Below, piece after piece: positions 32,785 through 61,040 of a stretch of DNA of 64,000 nt. Location: assembly GCA_002633005.1 (NCBI GenBank), contig NMRA01000204.1:576272-640271 (forward strand). The letters run 5' to 3'. The DNA comes from Phoronis australis. Taxonomy: Eukaryota > Animalia > Phoronida. The notes under the pieces were generated by a model, which did no database searches, had not been told where the DNA came from, and worked only from the letters and a program-made list of their open reading frames with translations. Numbering within the stretch: the stretch's first letter is position 1; each line of letters starts with the position of its first letter. Made by a program: the position numbers and the translations under genes.

Positions 32785-33252
32785 GTGTACCGGGTGTATG
32801 TGTTAAAGGCTGAGGTTATATACCTGGTGTATGTGTGTAAGGCAGAGTTGATATACCGGGTGTATGTGTTTAAGGCAGGGTTGATATACCAGGTTTATGT
32901 CATTGTGGTTAAGGCAGAGTTGATAACTATGTGTATGTGTTTATGGCAGAGTTGATATACCAGATGTATGTGTTTAAGGCTGAGTTGATATACCCGCCAG
33001 GTGTATGTGTTTTAAGCAGAGCTGGCACCTAAAGTGTTTTGTTTTAAATTGAGTTGATATACCATGTGTATATGTTTAAAGCAGAGTTGATATACCATGT
33101 GTATGTGTTTAAGGCAGAGTTGACTACGATGTGTATGTGTTTAAGGCAGAGTTGATATACCATTTGTATGTGTTTAAGGCAGAGTTGATTACTATGCGTA
33201 TGTGTTTAAGGCAGAGTTGATATACCAGGTATATGTGTTTTAAGCAGAGTTG
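32785..33252. repeat. Minisatellite, about 32-bp unit
   Basis: Roughly a dozen copies of GTGTATGTGTTTAAGGCAGAGTTGATATACCA ending just before the acceptor of scramblase exon A. Confidence 0.92.
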
Positions 33253-33283
33253 GCATCTAAAGTGTTTTGTTTTAAATTTCAGC

Positions 33284-36200
33284 ATGGCTGAACAGATGCA
33301 ACCCCAAGCTGGAGCAGGTATGTTAAGTGCAGCCTTTAGTTGATTATGTAGGGTCCCACAAACATGGTGGCTAAGCCTTTTGTCCATGTTGTCTTGTCCA
33401 AATTGAGGAATGGCAGAGGCTTCACAGTCGAAGGCGTGGCATATCATAAAACATGCATATTGTTGCATTTACATTCCATTATTGTGATGTTGATCATTAG
33501 TAATTTCCAGGCCTTGAGCTTTGAATAGAGTCTACCTCACCTGTTTCACCCACAGCACCAGTAGTAGATTATGAAAGTGGGTCAGGGTAGCCCAGCATTG
33601 TAGGTATGCATTGTCCTGACAGGTTCTTCCAGCCATTGATCGAGAAATGACAGTTCAACTGCTATTTATATAAGGTGCACTCAGTGTTAGATTCCATATT
33701 TTTGAAAAATTCTGAAATTAAGTTCATTAGGATTTATTTTTGAATACGATAATGTCATTATGTTAAATGACAGTCACTTTGTACCGACATCTCTCCTTCA
33801 CCATGTTACTCCATTGTGTCCACTTGCGAGTGGCGGCCTCAGGCTTTGAATCTGCGATCCTTTGGTTCCCATGTTTGCAAACTTGAAAATTCATGCTGAA
33901 GCTATTGCAACAAGAGCTTATGTTTGTTTTAGGCGGTAGCCAATGGATGGCACCACCTCCAATGCCTGCCAACTGTCCGCCAGGCCTGGAGTACCTCACT
34001 ATGATTGACCAGCTTCTAGTCCACCAACAGGTGGAGCTGCTGGAAGGTATGACCTTGTCTGAATTGTATGTCTTGATATTCATGGAACTTTCAAGCAATC
34101 CATTTAATGATCACTACGTTACCTGCATTGCTGTCCTGAAAATTAGATAATTCCAACAGTATTGTGTCTTAAACATTCATGCTGGGTTGGGGTGCAGTGA
34201 ATAACCAGTCACTTATGTGTGACTGTGTCATGGAACCCTTGTGTTTTGGTCTTTATCAAAACGGATCTTCAGTAAATGGGAAATGGTTCTGCAATGCAAG
34301 AAAGAAAATGCTTTATAACATCAAGTCAACTTTGACAAGTTATTTTTCGAAAGGATTCTCCATCGTATTCAGCAACACCTTTTATTATATTGTAGATTAA
34401 ACGCAGTTATGCCAGTTAGCTCTAGAATTGATTTACGCAACTGGAAGCAGACATAAAGTGTATACCTATCAGGGATTGTCACAACCTTGTTATCTGTTTC
34501 AGCTTTTACTGGATTTGAGACCAACAACAAATATGAGATTAAGAACAGTATGGGTCAGAGGGTGTACTTTGCTGCAGAAGGTAATGTGTACCTTATATAT
34601 TTACTGTTACCCTCTGTGTATTTAACATGGGTATTGCTGTAACATTCCTAATGTTTTCTTATGTATCAGCTTGTGTAGTGATGTTACACGCTGTTTTTTC
34701 TGATGGACCTGCGAAGCGATCTTGCATGTACAATTTCCTGTGCACTAGATTACAAAGTGTCCGATCGTGCAGTTATAAGCCCATCAACTCTGTTGAAGGC
34801 TTGTGCCCATACGGTTAGTTTTGACAAGTGTATATGACTGCAGTTGTATTATGCTCTGTTTTTCCTGTTGTAAGTTTGATTAACACACCCAGCTTTCAAA
34901 AATTAGTTAAATTAGTTTCCACTAGTGATGTTCGCTGTTCTACTTGTCACTGATTACGGGGTGACGTTACACTTTTCTCTCATGCTCTTGTCTGGCACTG
35001 TATGACTACAGCACATTGATGGTTTCAATTGAACTCTGGTGTGTGCATATGAACTTAAGTACAACTGAAATTGATGATTCCTTTAAACCTCACTTTTGTA
35101 CCATTGTCACCTGTGAAACTCTTGTTATGGCATTGGCCAATCTTCAGTTCTGATGACATGAAATAGTACGATAATAAAAACTATATGCAAACTATGTCTT
35201 TTTCTGTGCACATAAACTTGTGATGTGATTGACAGTTATATCTCTGAGAATTTCACGGTATGGCAGATGTTACTGTCAAGGATGGTCTAGTGATCATTCT
35301 TGGATCTCTATCATAATGTAATCTGGCTAATTCCTGTACAACATTGACTGACGTGATGTTTCAATCCATCCACAGACAAGCACAACAGAAAGTTGACATA
35401 GCACTGCAGAAAAATGGACTTTAATTTTGTCACATTCCTCCACAAAATGACAATTAAACATGCCTTGCTGTGTTTTTAACTTGGTTTGCCCTGCACAAGT
35501 GTTGCAAAATAACAAGTTGGAGAGTTTTGAACATTTGCAAGAACATATTTTGAAATTGCGAAAAATGTCAATTTTAACTCATTTTGCGCCAGGTTGAAGC
35601 ATGTTTACCCTACTTTTACCTCTATTCACCCACGCTGTATTGTGAAACTGATGGAGGTGACGGCCATTTAAGGACAACTAACATATAGTTTACACATTTC
35701 TCTTGAAGACACGGGCTGCTGCACCCGCAACTGTTGTGGTCCCGTCCGACCATTTGACATAAAGATCATGGACAACCAGGGTCGCGAGGTTATTCACCTG
35801 TCTCGGGGATTACGGTGCTCATCTTGTTGGTTTCCCTGTTGTTTGCAGGTACAAAACGTGACCCTCCAGTGTATTATTTACTTGATATCTACCAAGAGAG
35901 TCACCCTCTTGTGTATCATGGCTTGCTGGCTTGGCTTGGTATTTTCTTCTCCTGCACGTGCTCTAATTGTAAAGTTCTCTTTATCCACATGCTTTAGTCA
36001 CTCTCCCTGTGTAGTCATGTATTACTGGTTTGGCTTGGCATGACACATTCTTCTCTTGCGTATGTTCCAATTGTTGTGTTTCTCCGCATGTTCTAATCAG
36101 CCATCGCTTGCCCAGTTTCTTCCTTTAGGTAGATTAAACACTGTTTAGGTTTTATGACTACGGTAGTAAGCTGGGATGTCTGAATGGAGCTCATGAATGT

Positions 36201-39200
36201 GTTATTTTTGGCTCAACAAGCTACTTCATTCTTATTAAATCTTAGTTAGAAATTGACTCATTTTGAGCTTGTCCCCAAATTCCCAGTTTAGACGGGGAGT
36301 CCATCCTGATATCTGTTCCTCTAGGGCCTGTTTTACTGAAACATGTTTAACGTTTTTGGTCTGCAATGTGACGGACATTGTAGTGGCAGTTCATAAGTTG
36401 CATTTTTTCTGAGATTTAAGACAGGCTTAAAGAAGACTAACTTCAGAATATGAGGAGCTTTCTATACAAAAATGCCATAAGACACCTCACTTTTGATTAT
36501 ACTAAGTACTGGTGGACAAAACTTGTGGATTTTTGTCGTGTGTTTGTGTATTTTTGATACGTGGTCATGTATTTTCACATAGTTTGAAAACTCAGAATAT
36601 TTATGGTATGAACAATTTAACTTGTGTCTGTTACTGGTAATTTTTGCCACATGGCCCTCTTGTCAATTGTTAAGTATTGTTCTTCAGTTGGTTGTCTAAT
36701 ACTGGCTAATTAGCAAGTGTTGACCTGTTGCCGACTTATGACCCCATGTCTGGTCTGCTGTATGAACATGACGTGCATTATTTCCATGGTTTAATATGTT
36801 GGATATGCTTTCTTCCTGATTTGCTTGACCAGCATTTAATATTCATCCATCTATCATGTTACCTTGGCTGTATTTTTAATGTGCTGGTTGCATGCTGACT
36901 ATAACATAATGGTTAGTCATTATTCAACGTCCTGACTAGCTATATGTGCATTTGTGAGGCAGAGGAGTGGTTATGATCCTTGGATTAGTTCCCTAACAGA
37001 TATATTTGTGCAGTCAAGAAAAGTGTGGTGGTTTTGGGTTTTAAATGGCCTGTTTTAGTAAAAACTCGTGTGTGTATTAATGTTCTGCTACTAGTATTCT
37101 AAAAGTCATCTGGGTGTCATTCTATTTCATCGGTTAACCCTGAAAGTGTTTTTGACAAGACATGCTGTTCTTTTCTTTGCGCAGTTCTTAACACTTTTCA
37201 AAGGTAATGTAGAATTTCTCCCTGTTTCGTAATTGTTTGTTTCTGTTTTACTAATACTGACTCAATACATTATAATGTCATTTGTGGACGTATGCATTGT
37301 TCTGTGTTACCATTTCCACTGTCTTTTCTTAACTGGCTGTACAAAAACTTGTGCATATTGATTATAACAAAGCTTAACGCAATAGATATTCTCTTTTCCT
37401 CAACCAACAACCTGGCTGTGCTTAGAAGCATTTATCTCAAATGCATTAACTTGGGAAAATTCTGCTTCAAGAATCCTGTGAGAGCACCTTCCTTCGGCCC
37501 TCGATACCTTGGAATTGAGGCCAAACATTGGCCACATTCCCCTATGAATATATTTAAAAGTTACTCTCATCAGACCCAAAAATTCGCCTCCAACGATTAG
37601 AAAATAAAATGACTCAAAATTAGAATCAAGTCTGTAAAATATTAGTCTCAGTTTATTGAGGCATTTGCCAATGAGGGGTGGCAACAAGGGGGATGAATTT
37701 TCCCTCCATCAAAAAATTTCCCTCAGAATGTGCTGGCACCTTTCCCATCAGGAGCACGAGTGTCCCGTCTTCCTAAAGAGTGGGTGGGGATCCTGAGTGG
37801 TATAATTAGTGCTACCAATAATTTAAAGCTTTACTTATGAAATCATAACAGTTCGCTTAATTGTGAGAATTTTACGTAAGTATCTTCTACAGACAAAAAG
37901 TTTGTTGGTAAAACTTTTTCTTTGGACCGATCTGCAAGTAGTGAACTTTGATTAGGAACTAAATCAATTGTGGCCTCTTTTTGAATACTGTTGCCACCTC
38001 AATATTTGCTTATAAGTTAAGAACTTGTGACAACAAGTTAATTCTTATTATAAAAAGTTGTTGATTTTGCTCAAGTTGTTTGCTTAGTTGAAGTGCTTGT
38101 TGCAGTTGTGTTAGCATAAGACACCCTGTGGCTGACTCTTGCTCCCTCTGTTGTAGAAAGTGACAGTGGAAGCACCACCTGGGAATGTGGTAGGCTACAT
38201 CCAGCAAGCCTGGTCCATCTGTAAACCCAAATTCTACATACAGAATGCCCATGGTGACACGGTCCTCACCATCCATGGACCCTGCTTCACATGCAACATG
38301 TGTGGTGATGTGGAGTTTGATGTATGTACTTTTTCAATGTTAGGAATGTCATTTACAGTACATGCTTGCAATATGCTAAAATTATTGAGTGAACTCAAAG
38401 GTGGTGCTTATAGTTGCTGAATTAGTGGACGTGTACTCAAGATGGATGTATAACTTGTATTGTTCAACATCAGAACTTGTGCTTCTCATGGTTTACGAGA
38501 TTTCCTGTTGTTAATTTTCGTGCTTGTACATTTCACCTGTAAGTGGTGGGCATTCAGGGTTTTATTCTTATAAACAGTCGGGTCTTACTGGACAAAACTA
38601 GAGTTTTCATGCATTGGTGTTTCTTTGTTGTCAATCTGGAAAAAAATACTACATATGCCACAGTGTTCTCATCAGGATTAAAGTTGAATGCTGTTAGTCT
38701 CGAAGTGGAGATCTCCCCGTGGTCCGTCTTTTTGGTTAAACACTTTTTTGTCAATAATTTAATCAGTGTTAGATACTAATTTTCACAAAAATTGTAATTG
38801 CACTGGGCACTAGATGGAAGAATATAACAGTGATGACTCAACATTTTAGAGTTTTAGATCATTTAAAAGCACTGTATACACGATTGATATGACCACCAAT
38901 TAAAGACTAAGCATGATGACTCAAAATTAGAGTGTGGTGGTAAAATTTGAGCACGGGGGTTGAAATTTGATGGCCCACAATACTGAAGAAGCCTACCTAG
39001 AATGCCACTGTTAAAATCGATTTTTAACACAGACTTTGAAAATTCAAACATAATGTCCACACCAACTACACCACATGCTGTATTGAGGTTGGTCAAGTGT
39101 AACAATGAAACTGAAGGAAATGGAACTGGTCTTGTAATTCCTCATCTCTGTTCATGTTTATTACTGTAGCTTTAATCCAGAGAGGTCACAGGATCTGTCC

Positions 39201-40293
39201 TATGTACTGAGAACTGTTACACATAACTCACAACACTCTTGTTGAATGTAAACATGATATCTCTTATCATTCAACCACCTTCCTGGTGATATGTACTGAA
39301 TTTCTTATTGTGTTCTACACTGACTGCCCACAACTTTTATTTCTTTCATTATGGCCATTTGTTAAAAATTGCCTTACCTAGAAATACCAGAAATCAATAA
39401 AATAAATCAGATACTAAAATGTAGATTTAGTTTATTTTTGTTTGATGTTGGGGGCTTTTGGCCTTTGATTACAATGTGGCATGACTCTTTAATCTAGATA
39501 ATGTCACATGTATTTGTAGCATGCAATTAAATAAATCAGTTTTGACAGTCATCTAGGGAGTTACTGGTTGAAACTGTTTTCTGCAGTTGAAAATTTGCTG
39601 TAGTTTTAAATTCTTGAATTTTATGCTTCGTCTTCACTATTGTTTTTCTGTTTTAGGTTATGTCCTCTGATGACGGCACTCAGATTGGCAGAATTTCCAA
39701 GCAGTGGACAGGCCTAGTCAAAGAAATGTTCACTGATGCTGACAACTTTGGGGTAGCATTTCCAATGGACTTGGATGTTAATGCTAAGGCTACAATGCTT
39801 GGGGCAGTGTTCCTTATTGTAAGTCTTACAAGATGTCGAATGTCTTCAGCTGAATACAATGGAATTTGAAAAATACATAGTTGTCATTCCATTAATATTG
39901 TGTATTAATTGTGTGTGACAAACATTTAAAGTCTTGTCTGCACGCCACCTGTTGGCCACATCAGACCAGACTTAGTGATCCATATTTCCACGCCAGCTCA
40001 AGATATACATATGAAATGTAAATGGCACGTTGACTAGGAAAATGCATGATATGAATTATTATAACTAAGTGCATTGTTACACTTATTGTCTGAGTTAATT
40101 ATTATGTAATAACCCTTTTAAAGTTATAGGACATAACAGCACCTAATCTGATTATTTCGTCCAGTTTATGTTGAACTAGCGAGAATATGAATTGTTTTTT
40201 TGTGAATTGAAATTTTTTTTCTGTCAATTTTAGGACTTCATGTTCTTTGAGAAGGAAGACAACAAAGAAGAACACAAGGTGGGCATGATGTAG
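33284..40293 (+). CDS. PLSCR: Phospholipid scramblase (PLSCR family): shared exons A-C plus 3' cassette 1 (D1-G1)
   Basis: Exons A 33284-33317, B 33933-34046 ([34 protein letters not shown]), C 34503-34580 ([25 protein letters not shown]), D1 35709-35848, E1 38157-38321, F1 39657-39818 ([31 protein letters not shown]), G1 40234-40293 (DFMFFE...stop). All phases fit; GT-AG introns; AATAAA at 40470 and 41428. Confidence 0.95.
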
Positions 40294-40668
40294 AGTTAGA
40301 AGTGGCTCATACATCTAGGCCAGGCTTCGTGTAGTGTCAGCTGTTTTACCGAGAATTTGTTGGGGGAAAGGAATTGCATGTTGAAAATCTTCTGCAGGAA
40401 AATTGTGCCATGTAATATTGGTTTTGATTTGTCAGTTGATCAAAGTTACTGTTAACTCGATTTGTATCTAATAAACTAACCCCTTGACTCTTGTAAAACT
40501 GGTCTCAACTTGTCCCTTACTTGGTTGAGGAGTGGTTTTTGTCTTGTTATCATGCTGAAGCCTTCTTATTGAACCTGTTCTCAATAACCAAGTGTTGCTT
40601 CTTTCCAAACCCTGTAATCTCTTAGTCTAAGCAAGGAACAAATGACCAGTTTTATTATGGTAAAAAAC

Positions 40669-40922
40669 GATAGAAGTTACTTACTATAAGACTATAAGTT
40701 AGGTGTGCATAACGGCCCTTGTTTACATGACTGATCTTCCAGTCGTTGTTGAACCGGAAGTAATACTTTGTCGTAAATGGGAGGAAGTTGTAGTTCCTGG
40801 TCAAGGTGTTACTTCCGGTTCAACGACGGTGGGAAGATCAGTCAGGTGAACAAGGGTCTGAGCTGCAGGCTCGAAACGTTATGCGTACCTTACTTATAGT
40901 CTTCTAGTAAGTAATTTCTATC
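40669..40922. repeat. Inverted repeat (about 110-bp arms), possibly Penelope-derived
   Basis: GATAGAAGTTACTTACTATAAGACTATAAG...TTGAACCGGAAGTAA pairs with TTACTTCCGGTTCAAC...CTTATAGTCTTCTAGTAAGTAATTTCTATC. The right arm has an extra GGGTCTG-AGCTG-CAGGCTC-GAAAC segment. Confidence 0.85.
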
Positions 40923-42982
40923 ATTTCTTTTCCATCATCACAGAAAACAATGATGAATTATGGACACTTTTAACCATTTTTTTTGTGTCAAGTTTTTGGC
41001 AGGACTGTTTATAGCTCCTTTAATTGATAAGTGCTGTTACAGGTATCTTGTGTAGCATATGCCTATTAAAGTTGTATATTTTGATTCACTCTGTAATTTG
41101 ATTTTAAGAATTTGCAATTTGCCTACATTTTATATATTGAAGTTCTAGTATTTGTGCAAATGTTTGATATGTCTTGTCATTCTTCATTAGTGTTGTTCAT
41201 GTTATAGGGTGTAGCATATCATTTTAAGCCAAAAAGATAATTGGTTCTAGTCTCTTTTGATTCAAGGTGGTGTGGTATTTTTAGATGCTCACTTTTTCAA
41301 ACAAACGAATTCAGGTGGAATGAGCCCAAATGATGCATGATTTGTTTGTTTTTACTCCTCACTTGGCAAATCATAGCGTTTCAAACCTTGCTTACTCTAA
41401 TGTGTGTGCCTTTGTGCAGCTTTTTTGAATAAAACATCACAAAGCCTTTTAGTTGAAATTGATACCAGAGGTTTTTTAGTTGGGGTAAAGACCAAGACCA
41501 ACTTTGCATTTCTTGGCCTTATATTGTATTGGATTGTATATACTGTATAAAATTGTGTTTGAGAAAGATGACACGTTGCCTTGCGACATTGCTTTATTTA
41601 TTCCTGTGCATGCATGTTCATTCACTGTATTTGATCTGTTCTTTGTCCAGTGCCTTTCAACAAAGTAGTTTAGGACTTCAGTTCTATTTCAACTTACAGT
41701 ACTCTTTTTTAAATTTCACGTAAAATTTTATTTCTCCAGTGTGTCCCAGTCTTTGATATTTTAACAACTACCTTTTTAGGTGTCCACATAAGTGACTTTA
41801 AGGTTGAGTTGAAAACATAGGTCATGTAGGTTTAAGTCTCATTACTAGCTAAAAATCCACTTTGGTTCCCAAATGGTTGCTAGGTCAATATGAAGAATAA
41901 GATTTGAATTGTCTGTAATAACACCTACTGGTCTTTGACATTCTTCAGCACCTGGAAGTAAAATAATGCAAAATCAACTATGTTATTTTTACTCCTTAAA
42001 GATGATTTCGTTGTTTTATAGACGGAAGTACTAATATGTCACTGGAGCTGAGATATTTACCACACTTTGGTCAATCTTTGAACTCGACCTTATTCTTTTG
42101 GTTGAAATTTGATTGGGCATAGCTAGGACTATGATGTACCTCTTAGCATTCACTTTTCAGTTCTCTACTGTTAGAAGATAATTTGCTGACAATTTCTGTG
42201 TGTTGATGGGGGTCTCATCAACCTTTTACTGGATATCCCTGTTATTCAGCTTTCTTGAAATTCAAAACTTTGATATTGCACTCTTTGTTAAAAAAAGAAA
42301 TCGGTATCTCAATATTGAGCATTTTCTTATTCTAGTTTTAATGTCTTTCAGTTTCATAAATTAGCTTTAAATGGTTTATTGTGATGCAGCCCCTTTGTAA
42401 TAGTTTTTATCACGGAAAACTTATACCTACATGGTCCTCCTGAGTCTAAGTGAAATGAAGGTTCTCACTGGCATTTTATAATAAGTCGAGTATCTGACAA
42501 AACTTCAAATTTATGGAATCGTTGGATTTGTAACCAGTTTTAGAGGTGTCCGTTAAATTAATATATTTTTAAAAGAAAACGTGATTGTACCTATGTACTC
42601 CTGAAATACAGTTGTCTTTTGAATTGTGGTTTAATGATTTTTAATAGCAGTTCAATTTTGTGCGCAAATTTGACTGTTGCTGCTGGGAGTGAAAAGAAGC
42701 ATTGTCCTTCACGTCACCACCAGTTTAGTTTGTGTGTCATTGTTCCTTGGTTGTTGGCCATTCTTGTTACCATCCCCTGATTACCGTAAATCATATTTAT
42801 ACTGTCTTCTGTCGTTTGTTTCCCAGTGCTGGTCGGACCAATTCTGCTCTGTCAATTAATTTTCGTTCCTTATCGGGGTGCACCTCGGCTATCGACCTCC
42901 CTTCGCCACCCCAAGCTACTGCCGCTTGACTTGCAACAGATTGTATCAGAATGCAGCCATTGGCATGTGTGTATTGTTTTAG

Positions 42983-45208
42983 ATACGGATTGTTTGACTC
43001 GGATGTGCTGTGGCCGCTTTCGTATTTTTGATATGAAAATCTTCGACAACTACGGCAGAGAAGTAATTCATCTGAAACGCCCGTTCAGGAGTGACTCTTG
43101 CTTTTGTCCGTGTTTCCTACAGGTAACTGGTTACTGCAGTTGTTTCGATGCGCGTCACCACACTTCGCAGTACGTAAAAATGCCATTTGGTTCACACTCT
43201 TCTTGCGTTCTCTTCACTGACGTACATTTTACAAATGGTCATGAAATTACCTGAAACAGCGTTGGTGGTTCACACCATGTTAAAACGGAGAGTAAAAGCA
43301 TCTGCTTGTCCACAGTGTGACAGTATTCACATGATACAGCTAAATGCATGTCTAGTCTATGGAATAAAGGAAGTATAGCACACATCCTATTTGAAAACTC
43401 CCTTTTCCTAGAAAAAAATCAACTGCAAAATGTGTGTATCTGTTCATTCCTCAAAATTTAACTTGGGACCTCTCGCGCTCGTGATTACTACGTTAGTACT
43501 AGGCTTCCTCTTCCGTAATTTTGTAGGTCTTCTTAGTTAACGAAATGTCACACAACGCAGCTAACCCATTCACTTTATGTGTTAAGTACTATTCGCTGTG
43601 ATATTTTCTTGTGTTTTTGTAGAATTTTTATGTCTCAATTTTGTCAGGCTGTTTTGTTCACGAATAAACCGTTATGGAGTAAGTCAATCCGAAATCTGAA
43701 TTTCCATGAAACAATTTTCAGGAAATATGGTATACTGTTCACGAGTAAAGAATTGCGTTACTGGACAACGGCGGACGTTGTTCATGAGAACCTCCGTGCG
43801 CATCGTTAGGAAGGATGATTGGCAGCCCTGCCATTGGGCAATTCTTTTTCTGCTTGTGATTGGCGAAAAATCTAGCAATTGTAATTTAACTATTTTTGGC
43901 CGGGCTGAAATCTTCGTTCGATGTGCATCTCTGTCTACGTCGACTGTTTTCAGGAGGTGGAAGTGTGTGCACCGCCTGGTGTTGTCGTAGGTTATGTAAA
44001 ACAAGGCTGGTCCATCATAAAGCCAAAATACTACATTCAGAATGCCGTTAGAGAGACTATGTTGGTTGTCAACGGGCCGTGCTGTACGTGTGCGGTGTGT
44101 GGCGATGTGGAGTTCGAAGTATGTATTATTGTTAGGGGTTGTAAACTTGAGTAAACCATCGGTAGAGTTCAAATTTTGTTGAAAAGATCATGCTTCCACG
44201 AAACCTCACATGACTGAAACATGCCAGCTTCAAAAAAGTGAGAGGCGACATCAGCAGAAAAAGAACACCACTTAGAACTTCATAATAAAAACAAAAAGTG
44301 TTTATTTTACACCCATTTGGGTTGTCGAGAAGAGCTTCAACAATCTGTTCCTTATGGGTGCGCCCATTCGTCCTATCATAGGCAGTAATGATTTGTTTAT
44401 GTATAGAAACACCATGGCGATGTGGCTAAAGGTGGTGCCAAACGCCGGGCTGTGCGGCTAACAACGCTCTGTCTTCAGTGCGCAACCATGGTTATTGCTG
44501 TGTTATTTCACTGTTTGGCTAGGTGCATTCCCAAGATGGGTCTCAACTGGTTGGCAAAATCTGCAAGAAAAGGGGCGGTCTTATGAAGGAGTTATTCACC
44601 GATGCAGACATGTTCTCTGTTGAGTTCCCGTTAAATCTAGACGTGAATGTCAAGGCAATCTTACTTGGGGCCGTCTTCTTAATTGTAAGTAATGAAAATA
44701 CAAGCAGACTAGCTTTCAGTGCAGCTTCCTTGTTTGATGTGCAGGTATATAGTAGGAGGGTTCCCTCATTGCTCTGCCACAGTTATAGTCCTATTGCCGC
44801 AATGAAGAGTGCCACCCTTGGTTTATACACAACAATAGTCAGACCGTGCGGCCTGTGGTCACCAAACCGGATCCGATGATTTAATGCATTAATTGCAGAG
44901 ACACGCCGGGGAAATACTTTTTCCGTATTATGTCAGTAATATTCCACGCATTCACAATTTACCAAGTATTATTGTCAAAACTTTCAACGCCTAACTTCGT
45001 TAGTGGATCTAGGATGTCGTTGGAGGACACATTTCGAAGTACAATTCCAAAAAACGGCATTCCGCGGTCTTTTTGATCGTGACCGCTAAATGAAGCTAGA
45101 GTTCTACACTCTTCATCTTTGTCAATACTTGAGAATTGGTGTTTCCGTTCACAGGACTTCATGTACTTCGAAGAAACTCCGCAAGATGATAATGGAGGTA
45201 TTCTCTAA
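42983..45208 (+). CDS. PLSCR: Phospholipid scramblase 3' cassette 2 (exons D2-G2); no 5' exons of its own found
   Basis: D2 42983-43122 (140 nt, phase-1 start), E2 43954-44118 (165), F2 44523-44684 (162), G2 45155-45208 (DFMYFEETPQDDNGGIL*). D-F lengths equal cassette 1, frames open, splice sites canonical, AATAAA at 45320. Confidence 0.9.
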
Positions 45209-46107
45209 CTGCTTAGCGAGCCCTGTGGACCGTACTGTCGTCCAATGTCGCCCAGGTGCAGCATGAGTCTACTGTTTTCATTTTGTTCTCATTTCCTCTT
45301 TGGTTTGGCATTAAGTGCAAATAAATACCATTTGAAAGTGATACAAATTGTCTTACCGATTTATTTTGTTAAGAAATGTATGCTATTCTTTTCGCTAAAT
45401 TCTTGGGTCCACCTGTACGGAAAAAACGACAGTTAAACCGTCTAACCGAAGGATTTCTATTATGAAGCAGGATTTTCAACTTGTCGAAACTATTTTTAAT
45501 TGGTATCATACGAATGAACCTCATTTGGTCACGGCTGAAAATTCGGCGAAGTTAAGAATCGAGTAAGTCATGAATTTTTGCTTTTAATCCGAACGTGGTT
45601 CAAGGTGTAAATTAAATTTTGACCCCCGTGGAAAAATGACCCAGAATCACTTTTCCAATGGTTCATTTTCCAATAGAATGGTGACAATTTCTAACGTTGA
45701 AAATTGACCCGTTCAGTTAGATAACGACCGCGGCTCCTCACAAGTGAAAAAGTTCCCTCGTTAAAATTTGACCTCCGATTTTGACGTTTGTTGGAGGATG
45801 CTCAGTTACGGCATGAGTCTCACTCTCACACTCGGCGAAACATTGGCGAGTAACAGATGCGGGGGGTGGGCAGGGAACAACTTCCTCTATGAACACTAAA
45901 TAAACCAAACAACAATACCGAGTGAATATCCCTGACCACGGCATAGAGCAAATGGGTTGCATCTCCGGGGACCACTGGCGATTTCACAAGTAAACGACGA
46001 CCACTGACAGCTGCTCGGCGATCGGGACAGTGAACTCAGCAACCAGGGTTCATGGTGTAGCCTATAGCCGGGGGGATTACTCACGGTCGCGTGTCCACAA
46101 GCACTAG

Positions 46108-46153
<46 letters not shown>

Positions 46154-49100
46154 NCTCCCCCCCCCCTGGCTCCCAGGAGGTAGGCCTACTCCAGTATTAA
46201 AGTGACGGGGTGCTCCGCCCGAAAATCAAGTACCCGTGCACCCTTCCGTAGATATTTGCCAGAAGATATCCTTCCGTAGAGAATTTCCAGATAAAGTCAC
46301 CCTTCCGTAGAAAAATCCCACAAAAAGTCTCTTTTTTGCGATCCTGCCGGTGACACTGGTAAACGATACGGGAAATTGATGCACGCCGAGAAACCTGGGG
46401 CGAAAAACTGCATCCCAGCTGCGGATTGCATTCAGGCTGAACTCGTGGAAAGCGGAAATATACTCAGTCTGGTGAGTGAAAGTGATTATCTCTGAAGCTA
46501 CCCTCAGGCAGGTATCACTTAATTTTCCTCGGGAAATTTTTTTACAGGCACCGGCGTTTCTGATTGGCTAGTCGTATTCTTAACAGGCAGCGCATTAAGC
46601 AAACCGTTGACAAACTGGCATGACTGATGGATTGAAGTGTAAATATGGTCTCTTTTTGTACAGACAAATCGGTGCTTCAGTAACTAAGGAACGTGAATCC
46701 TAGAAATTGTTGCGCATTTTCGGAGTACGTCTTTCTTCTGTCGATGACTTTGGTTTACGATACTGTCCTGTATTCTTACCGTATGATTCATTCTGCCAGA
46801 TATGTTTTTATTGTACATGTATGTGCTTCAAGCACGCGGCTATGAAACATTATACTGCAGAAACGAAATAGTTGCTGCGACGCCACTTGCATGATAAGGC
46901 TAAAAATCGTTCACAGTCCGCCATTTTTTCATGGTGTTGTAAAGCTAACCAATGACTGCTGAGGTTACATCAACCAATGCTAAAGCGCGTGCCACTGGGT
47001 GATACCTGCGTGCTGGCTAGGCACGTAGGGAACCAGCGAGGGTGGCTGCCATACTGTCGTAACCGTAAACTGAAAGGGTTTCCCAGATTTCAACCAATGT
47101 GAATGACTGAATGTTATGACGTCATTTTCATTACCAATGAGAAGCCATGATAAACAGCTAGCATCACAGTGCTACCTTAATTCGTAGCTCTGTGAAAGAG
47201 TGTACTCGATCTGAAGCGGGACTAAATCATATCGATCCTTCAGTACAGATTCGTGATGAAAATGGCTGTTCTTTTTGTATTGATTTTTTTGCCAAAATTT
47301 TGAACCCTTTCGTGCAGTCTTAAGACGAAAACGTCTCCTTTCTTCCCGTAAAAGTGATCCTTCCGGGCTGCACATTCTGTTTATAACTACATATGAAAGT
47401 AGCCCCCCGGGCCTGACCCTCTTCTCATTGTTTCGGATGCCCCGGGGGCGTTGCCCCCCTTCTCTGCATGACACTACTGTCTACGGCCTCCTTGATTAGG
47501 GGGCTTAGCTATATCTTGACCCCGGTGGAATCCCGGCGCAATGTCGACGAGAATGACGAACCGTCTTTGTTTTAGAGTAAAAAACCAATGCACTTTTTAA
47601 ATTTAATCCGACTAAGAAACAAGTTGATATTAATCCGGAGCACAATTTTCAAAGGACAGGTCAAAATAGCCCTAAAATGCGCGGTAGGAAGGGTAAACCC
47701 TTCATCGAAAAAATCTTGCGTAGATTCGCCTCTGTACACGCCCGTTTGGCATTGAAATGCAGTAATACGAGACATCGAGCCTGGCGTACTCTACTGTGGC
47801 ACTGCATGGTCCTTGCGGGACGACCGATCACGGCTATAGGTTGGCTGGAGTAGCAAAAATTTCACCGGCTATAAGACGCCAGCGAAAACCGTTTTTTTCC
47901 AAACAAACGAGATGTCTACGAATTGGTCGTTTTCCCCAACACATAATTTGCTTCCCCACCACCCGAATCACTGTTAAGCGAAAGTTATTTCAAAACATCG
48001 CGGAGACAAAACAAAAGCTTGTAACTCCTGCGCACGGTTGTCCTTTGAAGTAAGGGGCCTCTATAAAAGTTCTACCTACAACGCCAATAGTTTTAGGATG
48101 ACGCAGTCCTCCAACAAAACTCCAGCAATTAAAAGTCGTGACTCTGGCTTATTGCGACAGTTTTAACTGTTAAAACATTACTGCAAGCAAAAATGCTAGC
48201 GAAAATGGCTAGAGTTTTAGCCAGTATGTGAACCGTGTACATGTTACCCACAGCATGGATGGCAGCATAGGTCATCAGAGATGTAGTATACCGCCGACCT
48301 GCAGATGTGTGGTCGCCCTATCTTCGGCATCAGACATCTTTTGGTGCACAGCAGAATTGTATGCCGAAACATTTTATTTGTTTAAGTGAACCTACATCAC
48401 AAAAAGCAGCGTGTGCGTCTTTTAAGGTGTACATTTTAAAAACTGTTTCCTGGTCCTTACGTGTGAAATGGGAACAATCACGTAATTTCCCCAACAGAGT
48501 TGAACTGACGGGTTATCTTCTTTTCATTTATTAAATTGTGCTTTCTGAGGTATTTGTGCTTTTCTTTTACGAGCACCAGCGGGTTATGAGGGCTTGAATT
48601 TATTTTTGTTAAAAGGATACTAAACCCTGTTTTGATCGGTTGATTTTCGCCAATTCTCGTTCTGTCACCTGCTAATGCTTCATTGGCGTCAATGTTCCAA
48701 GTTAAAGGCACATAGCCTAATCCCTATGTCACAAATTGAACATTATGGTCCGCCTCAGGTGTGGGTGGTCTTTTCCCACAGTTGCCGTGCAATTCGCTAA
48801 AAGCGTATAAAGCTGGTCACGCTTACCCGTTTAGCAGACTTTGATGGAGATTTAAAAATTTCCTCCAAGTTCTTGAGCGTTGTCTAGGGTTATCTTGTTT
48901 CAGAGAACTGGATGGGAAAATCGTTTTCAGTATCTCAATAGGTCAAAACCGGATTTTGTATCCTTTTAAATTACAAACAATGTTTTTGCTCTATATCATG
49001 TCTATTCACTGAACGGTGTACGTTGTACGAACATATATTGAATCATAGGCAAGTCCAAACTTGAAAGGCAATGCGTAACCCATAATTTGTCCTAAATGCG

Positions 49101-50152
49101 TTCTTTGGATTGTATCGCCCGAGTACAAAGCTGTATTTGGCACCTTAGTAAGAGGTCAGTGCGCACCAGCCTAGAAATCTACTACCAACGCTCTTGTCTT
49201 TCCGCTCGTAGCACAGATAATTATTATATATATAGCACAACCGACACGTATCGCCGGGTTTATGAACGAATAAAATCGGCACACGTTTCGGGCAAAGATC
49301 TTCACAGTGTTATCTCGGATAAATGGGCTACTGTGCAAGCCAACACAAAGAAAAATTATATATGATTACTTTTGTCATCGATGCACGGCCCTTCATCGGG
49401 GCCCCCTTCATCAGAAGACAAATGTTGCGAAAGGCCTTCTTATGGCAACCTGTTCAAAACTACAAAAGGGAGGGACATAAGAAAGTAGAACAGAAGGCCG
49501 GAGAGGAAATGGTTAGAGAGGTAGTGGTTCCTGTGGCCTTGGTACCTGTTCCACGAAACTGACTTAAATTCATCTTTTACTTAAGTCTAAGATTTGTATC
49601 AACTTCCAAACTTTGAAATTTCCACATCCGGTACGATAGTCCAAAATCAAGACTTAATTAAGTAAAAAACTGAAGTCAAACTTAAGATCTCTTTGTTGAA
49701 ACGGTCGTGAGAAAAATTTAAGATTTGCCATAGCCAAGTGAGTGTTGAAAAACAAAATCGATGAGATTTATTTAGATTTGGTGTTATCAAGATTCCTCAT
49801 CAGCGCACAGACCGTGAGGTAATTGTCACTGCTGTAAAATGTCAAGCCCGTGTCTTTATACCAAATGAAGGACTTCTCCTGCCTTAAGCAAATAATTTTT
49901 ACCTGACTGTCATTTATCAGGTTTTACATTGTCTCATTTTATCAGGTTTCAACACATGGGAAGGGGAATTTTTTATACATTTTGAGGATTAATTTCGTCA
50001 CTGGGATTGCAATGTTTAGATCGTTAAAGGGATTGAAGTGTACCTTTAAAAGTTTGAATTCAAGCGGTCTTTCTCAAACAGTGAACCACAAACCATTGCT
50101 AAAATCGTGACTGGTATTTCAACATTTCTATCTTAAATCCGTGTTCTTTCTA

Positions 50153-51122
50153 CAGTGGCGGATCTAGGATATCGCACGGGGGGGGGCCCAACATTTTGTC
50201 CGGCTGTAAGCATTTGCGCAAACCACGATTGTAGATGGGCATAGCACCGAATGGGGGGAGGTCGGGAGGGGGGTTTGCCACCCTCCCGCCCAGGACATTT
50301 TTCTGTTTTTTCCTCTAAAAATCAAACATTTTCCTTGATTCCTGAAGTATTATCCAAGAAAAAAGGCAACGTGTCAAACAGAAAAACTGCAAGCTACCAG
50401 AGACTCGAACTCAAAACCTGGTGAATAGAGCGAGCACGCTTTACCACTACACCACCACGACTTAACTACTGATAGTATACCTAAGAGACCTACTTGTTTA
50501 TGGTCCACAGCGTTTGCGCGCGAAACCTATTTCTTTTTGTAATGCTTATTACACGTTTCATATTTTGTGCAATCGGTTCTTAACAAATTTGTTGTATTTA
50601 AAATAGTCTTCAAATGCCCAAAAGACCAAATCAATTTTTCGTGTTGGCAATAATGACGGGATTGCTTTGGAAATCGTCTTAAGTTAAGGTTTGACAAAGA
50701 CAGACTTATGAGTTTCTGAGTGATTCACTAAGGCTTCGATTTAAATTCACATCTTACCAGCAGCTTCTGTTTTTTCATCGTCACCCACGTTCCATTTTCT
50801 TTAAAAAATGAAGTAAATTTTCTTCATTGCACAGTGGAGCAGACGACGGAAACGGAGCCGTAGTGAGCAGCGCCACTGCCGGTCGCCTGGGATATCGCGG
50901 GAGAGCCTATACTTAGCCATAGTTCCGAATTTGACACTTGAAATTGGATCTGAGCCCCCCCCACAAACACTAAAACTGCACACATTTAAATGTTGTTTCA
51001 TCCGTATAATTTTAATCACCGGGGTTAATTAATAAACTCAACATTTCCCTACGCTCTTGCTGTTTTATTTTTTGCGGCAGCCAAGGGGGGGCCCTGGCCC
51101 CCCTCCCCTAAATCCGCCTATG
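50153..51122 (+). mobile_element. Non-autonomous DNA transposon, imperfect TIR, 5-bp TSD, internal tRNA-like segment
   Basis: CAGTGGCGGATCTAGG ... CCTAAATCCGCCTATG with TTCTA at 50148-50152 and 51123-51127. Minus-strand GGTGTAGTGGTAAAGCG...GAGTTCGAGTC at about 50400-50458. Confidence 0.88.
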
Positions 51123-52385
51123 TTCTAGAATAAGAACTCATAGACCAGACTATCAAGACTATAACATTGGACTGAACATATAGGCTGTATATACACAAAA
51201 CGTACCGAGAGTGGCGTACATGAAGTAATATCCCACGAGAAATTATTCCGCGTATCGACCGAGATCGAATTGTATTTATCCCATACGCTTCGAATTCCTA
51301 AGTTTCTTTTGCTTTTTCCGCAATTTTTTTAAAAACTTCACTCAGACTGTTCACGTTTTCTCTAGTAAAAGAAACAGTTTTAAATGTGACAATTTATTAC
51401 TTGTAAAGTGATAACAAAGATGAAAACAAGGGTAACTTTTCATTGAAATTGTAACATATTCTGAAAATAGTTAAATAACAATATTGAATATTGTAGTTAC
51501 CGAGGCATCGGCGCCTGAGTTGCAGGCGATAAGATGTTTAGCAAATGAAAACTAAGACAGAACTGTCATATAATTAACAGTCCTGTTCCAGATGTTACGA
51601 TTGATACCTGACTGTATGTTGAGCGTTATTTACACTGCTACAATTGCATTACTTTAAACTATTTTCCGAAAGTTTGGTAATCGAACCGGCTAATGACGTC
51701 GAGTCGACATTGACCTACCTTTTGACTGAATTTTCCATGTCAGAGGTCACTTTTGTAGTGCGGGAGGTGAATACGGAAAACTTTATCACATGGCCGTATT
51801 TCCCTCGACAGATTCAACGCGTATGGGATAAACTTGAATTCAGTTCGTTCCTTCAATTTTTCAAAAATTGTGGGCTAAACCAAAACTGTTACAGTTTTTA
51901 GTAGTAACGCGAGGATCATTGTAGAAAACATGGGTGTGGGTGAACTGACCCACACAGCCTAAAGTCCATGTGCCAACTGAATTTGGAGGACCTGTGAGCC
52001 ATGTTAGTTTTTGTCCTCTTTCGCCTCTAATTTTAATTGGCCCAGGCCGTTGTCCCGAATTAAGTAATCGCAGTACGCCAATGAAATTGTTTTTGCGCCA
52101 ATGATGCGGTGACACTAAATATTATCTCTGGTAGTAAACGGACAATCAACGTTGCTGGAGCCGCCGAGTTGTTGAATACAACGTCTAAAATTTAAATTAA
52201 ACCAAAAATTCCCCAAACCGTGAGCATTCACTCAACAGCAGTCGCGAAAATAGTGTCTGCGGAGGACAAAGCTAAAAGGTCCGCTGGCACAATATCGCAT
52301 TTCCTCGTTTTTGCAATAGCTGACCACGATGATGGAGTATACAAAACATATAAAGATATCAAGTGTTTTTTTTTAATGGCACCAG

Positions 52386-55142
52386 AAACCAGCGTCTGTT
52401 CACGGATACTGTGCCGAGGTCACAGAGCATTTGAAATGACGTTCGTCGACTGGCAGATGAAGCCAATCTTGCACCTGTCTAGACCTCTGCGCCTTGAGTG
52501 CTGCCTTCCGTGTTGTCTACAGGTAAGATAATGTTCTGGGATAATATCATATGTCTTAGTTTTAAGCAGTTGAATTCTGCATCATTCTGAATAATGTACA
52601 TTGCTACAATATCTGGTTTAACACTACTGTAATTCTAATGTATCGAGACACTTTGTTCCAAGTGATGTTTAGAGAACAATTGCGTCTTCACAAAAATTAC
52701 ACCCAATGAACCGAGTGAATTTTCAATTAAATGGGCGCCTGATCCTGCGCACTCACGAGTAAAATCTCTTCCGAATTGACTTCCGATGTTTTCACTAATT
52801 GTATAATGCGCGCATTTAGGCCCATGTGCCTATGTATATTGCAATCGATGTGTTTTAAAAATAAAAAGAGTATTACGAAACTGTTACCCACCTGAACATG
52901 TGTGCCCAAGCGTCCCTAGTTGATGGGTGCGGGCGTTACGTCTTGTCTACCACATATGCGCAGCGTTCGAAATACATGCTGGCCTGATGTCCCCGGGGCC
53001 AGTGGATTTGCCACCGGGCCAGTAACTTTTAAAAGATAAAACATATGGCACCTGGGCCGGTAAATTTTTAGACTAACTGGCCCATCGGGTCAGCCCATTG
53101 ATTTACTGAAGTTCGAACACTGCATGTGCGTGTAGTTTTACGTCTACACAATTCGTTTTTTCAAAAACTACTGAGCAATATTTTCGCATGCAGATGCACA
53201 CGGTTCACATGGAGGTGCATGACTCTAAGTACGGACATATGAAGTAAGTGCACAAACTGAGCGATTTCTCACTGTTTCCCCATCCATTCGTAAATTGAAA
53301 ACATCAATTTTTACAGTAGCAACACAACCACCGCTCTCATGCGCCGTTGCTTACTGTACTCACGTTTTTCACGTAAGTTACACAAGCGCCTCCAGTAAAA
53401 GCATGCGCCGTAAACTTAAAAACTGATCAGTTCAAACTTAATGGCTATCCCCACAACATTGCGCAGTTTCAAGAGTTATTTTATGTCGGCCAAGTTAACA
53501 AACCATTATGCACCGTGCATCTGACCTATGGCCAAGCAGAAAATACGTAATGTTGACAGGAGGTGGAAGTGCAAGCTCCACTAGGCTGGGTGGTGGGCTA
53601 CGTTAAACAGGTGTGGACATTGGTGTGTCCTCAGTTCCATATTACAAATGCTAACCGGGACACTCTACTACTAGTGAATGGACCCTGTTGTACATGTGGC
53701 TGTTGCGGAGATGTGGAATTCGAGGTGAGCTTTACAAGCTTTTTTGAGAACTATAATGACATAAGTCTCAATAACCTAGTATAAAAGAACGGCAGCAAGC
53801 CGCCTTCCATCACGAACACCAACTATTGACTCGATCACGAATTAGTTTCAAATTGTTTCTCAATCAAATTGAAGACAATTTCACGGCTTCGAAAGATGTG
53901 ACACTTCGCTATTGCTCGCAATCAGGATCTACAAATTGGCTTAGCGCGTCATATTTTTGCACCAAGCACGATTTCGAAAAATAACGACCTTTCAGTTCTT
54001 TGCCATACCGTCATACACTATTTCTCTTCTGAAAAAGATACAAGTTCAGAACCCGTGGTCCAAATCAAGTTCGCTTCCTAAACGAAAGGCGGATTTACAG
54101 CCGGACATAACTTCTGAAAAGCAATCCATACCAATTACGGGTAGGGACACAGCTGTGTTGATCCAATTCAATTTCTGTTTTCTCCGTTATATAGGTTCTC
54201 ACGACATGCTCCTTATGAAGTGCATACAACTGCTGTTTTTTGTAGATTACTACAAAATCTTACCAAGCTTCTTGTTTGGTTTGAAACTGAAAAGCTTACA
54301 AAACGTTAACTTATTCAACAGACCACATCATTGCTAGGTTTTTAAGAATGACTATGTAAACCACGTGACAACGAGGTTATGTAGGATATTACTGACAGGT
54401 TTGGCATTTTATCAAATATCTACAGAACTGTAGATTTCAAGTCAGTAAAAGCAGGAAGACTTCAGCGCTTAAACTCAAGACAGACTGAGCTGGAATTACA
54501 CCAGTGAGCACGAAAATGTCACAAGAACATGTTGCAATAGCAAGCATTAGCACTTTGCAATAAGAGACTCAATGCTAACCTTCACGATTTCATTTTCACG
54601 AAAGAGGTCGCTCTAGCCGGCTGGTGACTGGTTGCCAAGCGAAGCAATATCTTTTCGAGAAAGTTTTCATGATTTATCGCCTGACAGGTAAGATCTTCAG
54701 ACAACGTAACTGCACTAGGCAAAATTGCCAAGAAACGAGGCGGCTTGGTTAAGGAAGTGTTCACCGACGCAGATTCATTCGCAGTGTCATTTCCCATGGA
54801 CTTGGACGTCAAAGTAAAAGCAACCTTGCTTGGAGCCATTTTTTTAATTGTGAGTAATCCAGAAATGAATATATACAGGGATAACCACTTACAGTAGGCT
54901 TCCCAACAACTCTTTTTGTCTGGTATAACATAACTTAAACATAACTTCACCTTGGCCTTGGGACCAGTCTAGCAGTGCAACAAGGACGTCACAGAAACAA
55001 AAATATCAGTGGTTAAGTTTTCCTGTCCACAATACACATGATTTTGCTAAAACTCCCTAAAAAGTCATACACCAATCTTGTAAAACTTATTCTAATACTG
55101 TAAATTTCTATTTTATAGGATTTCATGTACTTTGAGAGATAG
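52386..55142 (+). CDS. PLSCR: Phospholipid scramblase 3' cassette 3 (exons D3-G3); no 5' exons of its own found
   Basis: D3 52386-52522 (137 nt, phase-1 start), E3 53560-53724 (165), F3 54688-54849 (162; GKIAKKRGGLVKEVFTDADSFAVSFPMDLDV), G3 55119-55142 (DFMYFER*). Frames open, splice sites canonical, AATAAA at 55305. Confidence 0.9.
52961..53122. mobile_element. hAT-like MITE with 8-bp TSD
   Basis: TIR CAGCGTTCGAA / TTCGAACACTG; flanks CATATGCG and CATGTGCG (one mismatch). Confidence 0.75.
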
Positions 55143-56892
55143 ACAGCCTCACTACAACAGTGACAGAGCTTGCCAACAGTCTGGTGACATTAAATAGAGT
55201 AAATGTTACCATTACCTGAATAGTCAACTTCATTTTTACATTCACCATTTCTGTAACATTTACTTTCATACCTGAAGCTCAAACAGCAACTTCATGGTAT
55301 TATTAATAAAACTTTTGGTTTGTAATGAGTTTATTCTTTTTTATGCAAAACAGTCAACATTCTCAGGCAGAATTTTAATAAGACAGTGTGACATAGCACT
55401 AACTCTGCGTAGTACAAGGTTATTCTGATGAATAATCTACCATAGATGAACCATTACTTCGACAAAGAACAGTTTTTCTTGCACGGACAGTAGACCACTA
55501 ATTTCTCATACACAGCTGTTATTTTTATGAACCAACTGTGAAATGTATGAAATATAAGAAACTAATGATTAAAAGTGAGTGACAATGAAACATCAGGACT
55601 TGAATTGGCTACCTGCAGGGTAACCGGAAGGATCCCTTAATGACTTGTGCACAATATGCCTTTCCTCTAGGTAGGAAGTGTGTCTGCATGGAATATTGGG
55701 TCCCAAGGGGGTAATTGGGCATTACCAACAGGACTTCATGCAGCGTTGTCCTGGGCGTCCATTGGGACGCCCTAGCACTAATCTGGACGCCCTGACAAGG
55801 ACGCCCAATGTATCATTTGGAGCCCTGTCAATCAGAATTTCTCCTTTGGACACCCACATTGTAAGATTACTAGGACACCCCAGTTAATGAAAGAGAGAAG
55901 TTGGGCCTTTCAACTAAAAAATAGATATACAATGAATACAAAATGTATGTAAAGTGTTACAATGTTCAAACCATTTTCAAAGTATTTAGTAGACCTGTAA
56001 TCATAAGCAGGTGCTTGGTTGCCAGAGTGTCTGCCATAGACATGTTAGCATCATCTGTGTATTTTTCTTGTGTTGGTAACTGCAGCTTTGATGACTCATT
56101 GTACATTATATAAAGCTAGTTAAGATGATATGATAAACTTTATACCAGCAATTTGCACTCATGGTTCAACCAAAATCTGTAATATCTGTAATACTTGTTT
56201 GGTTAGAAATTTGGCTGTTTTCGTAAATTTAGACATAAAAGTCTTGATCCACATATTTTTTTTTTAGTAAAAAGATCACTACAAGAGAGATGTTTTTGAA
56301 AACGTACATGTAAAAGACTTGTTCTGTGTGTGGGGGGAGGGGGTTACTGGTGAATGGTGGTGGGGAGTGGGGATAATGCGTCGTTGCAATCATGGATGCC
56401 CTGGAATCCTGGGAACCCCAGTTTGAACACCCTATTTTCGAAATCCTGGATAAAGCCCTGATTACCAAGTGCAAAACGCACTCCTAATCTGACTGAAAAC
56501 TCCACCTGATGGATATTGCGCAAACATCTGCCCACTGCATCAGCTTTTTAATTCGAGTATCTTGACTTTTTCATTTCCTGCTTCTGACAATAACGCGTAG
56601 TTTCTGTTTCATAAAATCAGCGACACACGTTAAGGCTGAGTTATTGACAACACAAGTTTTAACCCTGTCATGCACTCTCCTATAGTCCCATGATTCTGTT
56701 CATCCAATTGCTGCCAGTTAAAGCAAGTGCGTAGTTACATTGCAGTGTGAATTAACATATCCACAACTTCCTCGCTCTTTCCTCTCTCTGGGGCACTAAT
56801 ACACTCCAGACAGAAATGTGTCTCCCTCTCTCTGTAACCGAGGCATTAACAAGTGCCAGTCACAATAGATACTTGACTATTCTCTCCATCTT

Positions 56893-60680: not shown

Positions 60681-61040
60681 TTTGTCTGATTTGTCACGCT
60701 CCCTGGTGGTAAGTTTACAGAAATGAATAATATTTTGTTTTAAACTTTCTTGTTGGTTAGGTTAAACTGTAATTATCGGACTGTTATTACTAATTTATTT
60801 TGATGTGTTAAAATATCATGTAGGTTGTTTTCTCTACAAAGGCGAATAAAAACAAAGGCGAATGAAAAAGGTATTAGTCACGTGACAAAAGATGGAGGTC
60901 ATAAACAAGGAAGTACCCTGTAGTTTCGAATTGGCATGGTGTGTTTACGTGAATACTGGTTGTGCGAATAGGTAATTACCTCGTAGGAACACGGTGCTGC
61001 GTCAAGTAATCTCTCAAGGGTATACACACGACAAGACAAG
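60681..61040. promoter_or_regulatory. Probable bidirectional promoter between RNF7 and the SH2 gene
   Basis: 360 bp between divergent ATGs; palindromic E-box GTCACGTGAC at 60877-60886; ETS-like AGGAAGT near 60908; YY1-like AAGATGG near 60889 and 61038; direct repeat ACAAAGGCGAAT twice. Confidence 0.6.

Follow-up and report, generated by a model that had tools for sequence, protein, structure and literature searches.

In vertebrates, members of the phospholipid scramblase (PLSCR) family are encoded by whole-gene paralogs. In Drosophila, PMC11335299 describes isoforms of scramb1 that arise from alternative promoters, differ in their proline-rich N-termini, share a common barrel and vary in abundance among tissues. 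Duplicated multi-exon 3' cassettes placed behind a common upstream exon, and used in a tissue-dependent manner, are described by Pan et al. 2018 (PMC6191721) for Drosophila PGRP-LC, CG42235 and pip. In that study, the five cassettes of CG42235 comprise five to eight exons each and the ten of pip two to four, and cassette choice in these genes is governed by competing RNA pairings. Here we describe a PLSCR-family gene built in this manner in the phoronid Phoronis australis, within a 64,000-nucleotide (nt) stretch of contig NMRA01000204.1 (positions 576,272 to 640,271; hereafter the window). The tandem 3' cassette architecture is already known from Drosophila and is, as far as the literature found goes, new for the PLSCR gene family and notable for its phylum. 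A survey of titles and abstract openings yielded no report of a PLSCR case, and the main text of PMC5740500 does not mention PLSCR. A first-pass annotation of the window had likewise known of none, but gene models of Lineus and Lingula show duplicated alternative exons, so the idea is less isolated than it had appeared.

We read the locus as one gene in which a single exon C is joined to one of three tandem four-exon cassettes (D-E-F-G), the choice being sample-dependent and likely a matter of tissue or stage, and we put the probability of this reading at just under nine in ten. The coding part of the shared exons A-B-C occupies 33284-34580 and the cassette blocks lie at 35709-40293, 42983-45208 and 52386-55142, all on the same strand and ordered downstream of exon C, whose donor at 34580 is the switch point (Table 1). 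All 15 exons were located with AG/GT ends, their boundaries being set by splice sites and frame. The introns from C to D1, D2 and D3 measure 1128, 8402 and 17805 nt, and the introns of the cassettes do not align with one another. Hidden Markov models (HMMs) of the exons, made from 224 homologs, found exactly one B, one C, three D, three E and three F in six frames of the window, with next-best B and C matches at E of 2 or more. A tblastn search with the exons, which the first-pass annotation had suggested as a hunt for further B/C exons, concurs in the matches listed, and its matches at the poly-C stretch at 46.1 kb are low-complexity proline only. The layout proposed in that annotation therefore stands: single B and C, triple D-E-F, no B/C-like exon before D2 or D3, intact splice sites, open frames, and exon lengths that match exactly (140/140/137 nt for D in cassettes 1/2/3, 165 nt for every E and 162 nt for every F).

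RNA evidence was drawn from four runs under one species label, namely a contig set from another study (X1) and raw paired RNA-seq of one study (X2, X3 and X4). The reads are 151 nt long, and were aligned on 32801-52800 and, separately, on 52201-55800. All three junctions expected from exon C were found. Those from 34580 to 35709 and to 42983 were seen as GT..AG joints, and the unaligned read ends before D3 at 52386 correspond to 34549-34578, the end of exon C, a match that is unique in the window. Reads joining C to D1/D2/D3 number 22/253/12 in X2, 11/187/14 in X3 and 89/0/0 in X4. Each of the nine within-cassette junctions has reads, with 12-46 (X2), 15-18 (X3) and 80-125 (X4) per joint in cassette 1 and 167-317, 171-257 and 0-2, respectively, in cassette 2. 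The coordinates of one X1 contig, which covers D1-G1, are consistent with A-C lying upstream. No cross-cassette joint occurs among the best 15 of the 89 joints on 32801-52800, and no foreign loose end is among those listed at E3, F3 and G3 (52201-55800), though cassette 2 exceeds cassette 3 more than tenfold in abundance.

Cassette choice differs sharply between RNA samples. The approximate shares of cassettes 1/2/3 are 8/88/4% in X2, 5/88/7% in X3 and 100/0/0% in X4. A Fisher test of C-D1 vs C-D2 gives p 3e-76, on read counts, for X2 and X3 together vs X4, and p 0.36 for X2 vs X3. X1 assembles mainly cassette 1, plus a weak E2-F2 contig. X4 keeps 2-3 reads on four cassette-2/3 junctions, and the cassettes are therefore present in that animal. 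The sample difference likely reflects tissue or stage. The earlier claim that one gene makes three scramblases by mutually exclusive choice is upheld by the three C-D junctions, whereas strict exclusivity along full-length molecules is inferred from 151-nt reads.

Table 1. Exons of the Phoronis australis scramblase locus in window coordinates (read counts in the order X2/X3/X4)
Exon	Position	Strand	Role or content	Evidence
A (shared)	33283..33317 (coding 33284-33317)	+	acceptor 33283, ATG 33284	A-B joint 225/210/103 reads
B (shared, single copy)	33933..34046	+	strand 1 in stand-in model	RNA joints, Pfam, HMM
C (shared, single copy)	34503..34580	+	strands 2-3 in stand-in model	RNA joints, Pfam, HMM
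D1	35709..35848	+	opens cassette 1, ends with Cys-rich motif	C-D1 joint 22/11/89 reads; X1 contig
E1	38157..38321	+		D1-E1 joint 12/15/80 reads; Pfam
F1	39657..39818	+	canonical Gln-Trp strand, most of core helix	E1-F1 joint 24/17/82; Pfam
G1	40234..42583 (end approximate)	+	coding 40234-40293, stop 40291-40293, 3' untranslated region (UTR) of ~2.3 kb	F1-G1 joint 46/18/125
D2	42983..43122	+	opens cassette 2	C-D2 joint 253/187/0 reads
E2	43954..44118	+		D2-E2 joint 225/203/2
F2	44523..44684	+	Lys-Arg replaces Gln-Trp	E2-F2 joint 317/257/2; X1 contig
G2	45155..45340 (end approximate)	+	coding 45155-45208, stop 45206-45208, AATAAA 45320, short 3' UTR	F2-G2 joint 167/171/0
D3	52386..52522	+	opens cassette 3	exon-C end precedes D3 in 12 (X2) and 14 (X3) reads; none listed for X4
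E3	53560..53724	+		D3-E3 joint 16/19/0
F3	54688..54849	+	Lys-Arg replaces Gln-Trp	E3-F3 joint 18/11/3
G3	55119..55325 (end approximate)	+	coding 55119-55142, stop 55140-55142, AATAAA 55305	F3-G3 joint 22/14/2

Joined to each cassette in turn, A-B-C gives open frames of 250, 248 and 237 amino acids (aa), the first 75 residues being common to all three. The cut-off of the Pfam Scramblase domain (PF03803, 25.4 bits) was passed by 11 of the 11 scanned exons, at profile positions 6-214 and in consecutive order; the scan took in B, C, D1-3, E1-3 and F1-3. The locus is one PLSCR-family gene. The cassettes are 57-60% identical in pairwise amino-acid comparison, with segments ranging from 38 to 67%. 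Synonymous sites are saturated between cassettes (proportion of synonymous differences, pS, 0.81-0.88) and nonsynonymous divergence (dN) is 0.34-0.37. The comparison of rates suggested in the first-pass annotation thus returns a dN of about 0.35 and a dN/dS far below 1, which indicates that purifying selection acts on the cassettes.

A Tubby-type fold has been proposed for PLSCRs (PMC2639001). Our stand-in for the Phoronis proteins is the model of a Lineus homolog (P0186) that is 78% identical to isoform 1. It comprises 12 strands and a C-terminal helix at residues 216-234 (pLDDT 82). Strands 36-42, 57-61 and 67-73 precede the C/D boundary, which falls at residue 73, the end of strand 3, and nine strands and the helix follow it. 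In a Foldseek search with the model, the top three rows were Tubby and At5g01750 at E 0.002-0.006, none being at E<=0.001; the F-exon profile had no sequence match in the PDB. The first match in the Atlas scored 0.82, no more than a lead. On the P0186 model, strands 1-3 would come from the shared exons, while strands 4-12 and the core helix would be supplied by the cassette, in agreement with the earlier argument that D-G alone would lack the first strands. PMC10371867 reports that, in human PLSCR1, loss of the first-strand region or of the helix harmed antiviral activity most, which is consistent with D-G being unable to work alone.

The cassettes have kept conserved residues to different degrees. 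Among 67 cassette columns that are at least 90% conserved in the homologs, cassettes 1, 2 and 3 retain 65, 59 and 54. Both cassettes 2 and 3 carry Lys-Arg where 92% and 99% of homologs carry Gln and Trp, at positions that align to His262-Trp263 of human PLSCR1. That pair is reported to belong to a non-classical nuclear localisation signal, and replacement of residue 262 by Lys or Arg lowered the antiviral activity of PLSCR1 (PMC10371867). Cys is found at three of the five aligned positions of the primate palmitoylation motif in each isoform, in a pattern that differs from one isoform to the next. Alignment through primate rows places an equivalent of Phe281 of the Ca-binding loop in all three isoforms; in the region of this loop, a neighbouring conserved Gly is altered in isoforms 2 and 3 and a conserved Asp in isoform 2. 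Functional divergence among the isoforms is likely on these sequence comparisons.

Homologs were taken from the best 120 of 1782 and the best 120 of 592 matches of our searches, and 224 of 200-400 aa were compared. The closest relatives of isoform 1, among the matches listed, are one database protein (82.5%) and proteins of Lineus (78%), Owenia (77.5%) and Lingula (75%). In a tree of 39 rows hand-chosen from the matches, cassette 1 falls within a lophotrochozoan set of 20 rows (support 95/96), and cassettes 2 and 3 pair with each other (99/97) at the end of long branches. Judged from these sequences, cassette 1 is the conserved lophotrochozoan form and cassettes 2 and 3 are its fast-evolving companions, sister to each other.

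Automatic gene models of other lophotrochozoans bear on how such cassettes arise. RefSeq holds eight isoforms of Lineus longissimus in one cluster (XP_064639677-81, 83-85), with two versions of D that are 80% identical, two of F (81%), four of the last exon and a constant E; the alternative D begins exactly after exon C. Lingula anatina has three versions of the last exon (XP_013418544/47/48), and isoforms of Mytilus, Ostrea and Crassostrea vary only at the N-terminus and the extreme C-terminus. On the Lineus and Lingula models, exon duplication behind the exon C donor seems to be recurrent in lophotrochozoans. No pair among the 224 homologs, drawn from the best 120 matches per search, shared an unchanged B-C while differing throughout D, E and F as one block, and the same-species pairs flagged among them were Lineus isoforms only, the remainder being cross-species or unnamed. 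A search of longer proteins with E2 as the only query gave none in five candidates, which is weak evidence. Two database proteins, P0015 and P0023, have tandemly repeated E-F segments and could be models that fuse duplicated scramblase cassettes from other animals.

Several points weigh against our reading of the locus. With reads of 151 nt, no molecule of cassette 2 or 3 is covered all the way from C to G, and 74 weaker joints lie beyond the 15 listed, so low-level mixing of cassettes 1 and 2 is possible. The C-D3 reads were counted as loose ends in the separate alignment (likeness 94 vs 90), which makes the shares rough. The raw data amount to three runs of a single study, about 18-19% of each having been read, and their sample types are known only as codes, so tissue, stage, treatment and genotype are inseparable. 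The division of the barrel between shared and swapped strands is read from a homolog's model. The tree places cassettes 2 and 3 outside the lophotrochozoan set that holds cassette 1, unlike what a recent duplication would predict. Docking/selector pairing between intron C and the 500 nt upstream of D2 or D3 did not rise above shuffled background in this one species; the best duplexes for D2 and D3 (-23.6 and -24.1 kcal/mol) are within the range of 15 shuffles each, the best of which reached -24.6 and -26.6 kcal/mol.

The tree lends itself to another history, in which splicing is unchanged and cassettes 2 and 3 began as a nearby, older PLSCR paralog; after its promoter and exons A-C had been lost, the exon C donor of the upstream gene would have captured the remainder. 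The saturated synonymous sites and unalignable introns would suit this history, as would the presence of at least two PLSCR proteins in each of Lingula and Actinia among the matches listed. However, the tree test does not reject grouping all three cassettes in one clade (p-AU 0.385), and with branches this long attraction towards the root is plausible. The HMMs detect no relic of B or C in the sequence ahead of D2 or D3, and the Lineus models also duplicate exon D behind the same donor. We consider capture unlikely, while leaving it appreciable weight, and a duplication within the gene, with rapid change afterwards, explains the origin more simply.

Other rivals concern how the three proteins are made. 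The switch between samples might be genetic, the alleles of individuals favouring different cassettes, since X4 differs from X2 and X3 at many single-nucleotide polymorphisms, probably being another individual, and the sample descriptions are coded. Yet several sites in the gene are heterozygous in X4, which still splits 89:0 and has rare cassette-2/3 reads; X2 and X3 have mixed alleles and an equal ratio; and X1, although from another study, is also mainly cassette 1 with its weak E2-F2 contig, all of which makes a genetic switch improbable. Slightly less probable again is that the distal isoforms arise by trans-splicing of separate pre-mRNAs, as in Drosophila mod(mdg4) and lola, in place of long cis introns. 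In cis, use of a distal cassette does mean transcribing past one or two 3' ends and splicing out introns of 8.4 and 17.8 kb, and zero depth at 45474-46140 (X2, X4) and 47475-48141 is as compatible with scarce nascent RNA as with interrupted transcription. The cassettes nevertheless lie on one strand, in order after exon C, so cis-splicing suffices; isoform 3 is rare, with little intron signal to be expected, and the zero depth at 52201-52320 means that no reads carry a 5' extension of their own before D3. The same gap in depth leaves no reads in support of a separate start at the in-frame ATG at 52376-52378, 8-10 nt upstream of the D3 acceptor. That codon, together with the loss of 13 of the 67 conserved columns from cassette 3, is what could suggest three separate genes, or one gene with two truncated or dead copies. 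We find this scarcely credible, given that RNA splices exon C to D2 and D3, cassette 2 predominates in two runs, the frames are open and dN is far below dS.

For the single gene with alternative cassettes that we favour, we propose that choice of the D1, D2 or D3 acceptor competes with cleavage at the 3' end of the upstream cassette. Cassette 1 would be the proximal default; for the distal cassettes D1 would be skipped and polymerase would read through the cassette-1 3' end, with cell-type-specific splicing factors probably setting the choice. We infer that cassette choice is coupled to polyadenylation. On the stand-in model, each isoform would fold as a single 12-stranded barrel with strands 1-3 common and 4-12 swapped, and the Cys-rich membrane anchor, the basic strand, the Ca-binding loop and the core helix would be exchanged along with the cassette. 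Most likely, D-G was duplicated within the gene, the copy changed fast, and a second duplication then gave cassettes 2 and 3. The likely effect is that the isoforms differ in membrane or nuclear targeting and in lipid contact, with cassette 1 retaining the ancestral role.

The 3' ends largely agree with one end per cassette. An AATAAA follows each stop, at 40470 and 41428 in cassette 1, 45320 in cassette 2 and 55305 in cassette 3. Read depth ends near 42.6, 45.3 and 55.3 kb, and the G2 and G3 signals fit these ends. Seven molecules of X4 start at 42583 in the cassette-1 end region and six of X3 at 45309 in that of cassette 2, and sense depth drops past 55320 in cassette 3. Cassette-1 RNA reaches ~42.6 kb, beyond both of its AATAAA sites and ~400 nt short of D2. 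The description of each cassette as having its own stop and AATAAA thus needs one amendment, in that the cassette-1 sites are not the sole or last 3' end. Inside the cassette-1 3' UTR lies a long inverted repeat (40662-40929; arms of 53/55 nt, 85-87% complementary) that resembles a miniature inverted-repeat transposable element and would form a long hairpin in the mRNA; similar elements occur at 48609-48969 and 59132-59661. A transcript of the opposite strand (54800-55800) overlaps G3, its 3' UTR and the last cassette-3 intron, its depth climbing toward 55800 in X2-X4, and is probably the 3' UTR of a convergent neighbour. Its signal peaks at ~55.6-55.8 kb in X4, the run in which cassette 3 is almost absent.

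Exon A had been taken as the first exon. This was mistaken, as RNA splices an upstream exon onto 33283, 249 and 215 reads having loose ends before 33281. The final 30 letters of that exon have no match anywhere in the window at up to three mismatches, and it is perhaps located in a gap of 341 N at 26709-27049, 6.2 kb upstream. The coordinates of the X1 contig imply at least ~106 nt upstream of exon A, and we therefore judged a trans-spliced short leader to be unlikely. A minisatellite with units of ~33 nt (32760-33254) stops immediately short of the acceptor of exon A.

The 7-kb interval that separates cassettes 2 and 3 (46100-52100) is rich in repeats, with a poly-C run at 46109-46166, and both strands are read there in all runs. 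A 20-nt inverted match between 34686-34705 and 48395-48414 was taken as chance (E 0.12). Elsewhere in the window, an exon of CFAP300 was recognized at 435-725 on the minus strand (Pfam PF14926, E 1e-25), and an open reading frame of 857 codons at 19723-22293 on the plus strand has, by eye, Cys/His spacing like that of C2H2 zinc fingers and a sub-threshold Pfam match to OrsD. We take an exon at 60408-60761 on the minus strand to resemble the N-terminus of RNF7/RBX2, although it has no Pfam match. Human RNF7 and the PLSCR cluster are both on 3q, and the RNF7-like exon beside PLSCR may mark an old linkage.

A single gene likely supplies different tissues or stages with different versions of a scramblase. 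The function of PLSCRs is disputed, and the locus offers three naturally occurring proteins that share promoter region and N-terminus but differ in palmitoylation motif, basic strand and core helix. Cassette architecture has been best studied in flies; here it is documented by junction reads in a lophotrochozoan, with a near all-or-none difference between samples, and it makes a compact system for learning how the spliceosome skips a four-exon block together with its 3' end. The locus is also a warning for annotation, being easily miscalled as one gene with two truncated paralogs. More speculatively, lophotrochozoans may repeatedly duplicate exons behind a fixed donor and not the gene (in Lineus, D, F and G one at a time; in Lingula, G; in Phoronis, all of D-G), and the near all-or-none switch in Phoronis may swap three quarters of the barrel for an old, possibly captured Lys-Arg variant that serves another purpose, for instance import into the nucleus or the binding of anionic lipids. 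We regard this broader view as tentative and, on balance, doubtful; if true, it would provide a natural set of chimeras that isolates the function of the PLSCR barrel.

Like PGRP-LC, CG42235 and pip, the Phoronis locus has single-copy 5' exons, one donor that reaches the first acceptor of each cassette, and a stop and 3' end for every cassette. It differs from the fly genes in gene family and in its lophotrochozoan host, and the competing RNA pairings of the fly genes were not detected here in a scan of one species. Whereas PGRP-LC swaps whole PGRP domains, the scramblase would switch after strand 3 of a 12-stranded barrel, as placed by the stand-in model. The PLSCR genes of Lineus and Lingula belong to the same family, their products are 75-78% identical to isoform 1, and their alternatives start at the same residue after exon C. 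In those genes, however, the alternatives go exon by exon, with E constant and the versions combinable, while Phoronis swaps D-E-F-G as a block whose copies have diverged far more. Human PLSCR1 shares with the Phoronis proteins the scramblase domain, the Cys cluster, the Phe281 equivalent and, going by the stand-in model, the predicted 12-stranded barrel with a buried C-terminal helix; the Phoronis proteins are without its long proline-rich N-terminus, and isoforms 2 and 3 have Lys-Arg in place of His262-Trp263. Like scramb1, this is an invertebrate PLSCR gene with multiple isoforms, but scramb1 varies the N-terminus and keeps the barrel, and the Phoronis locus does the reverse.

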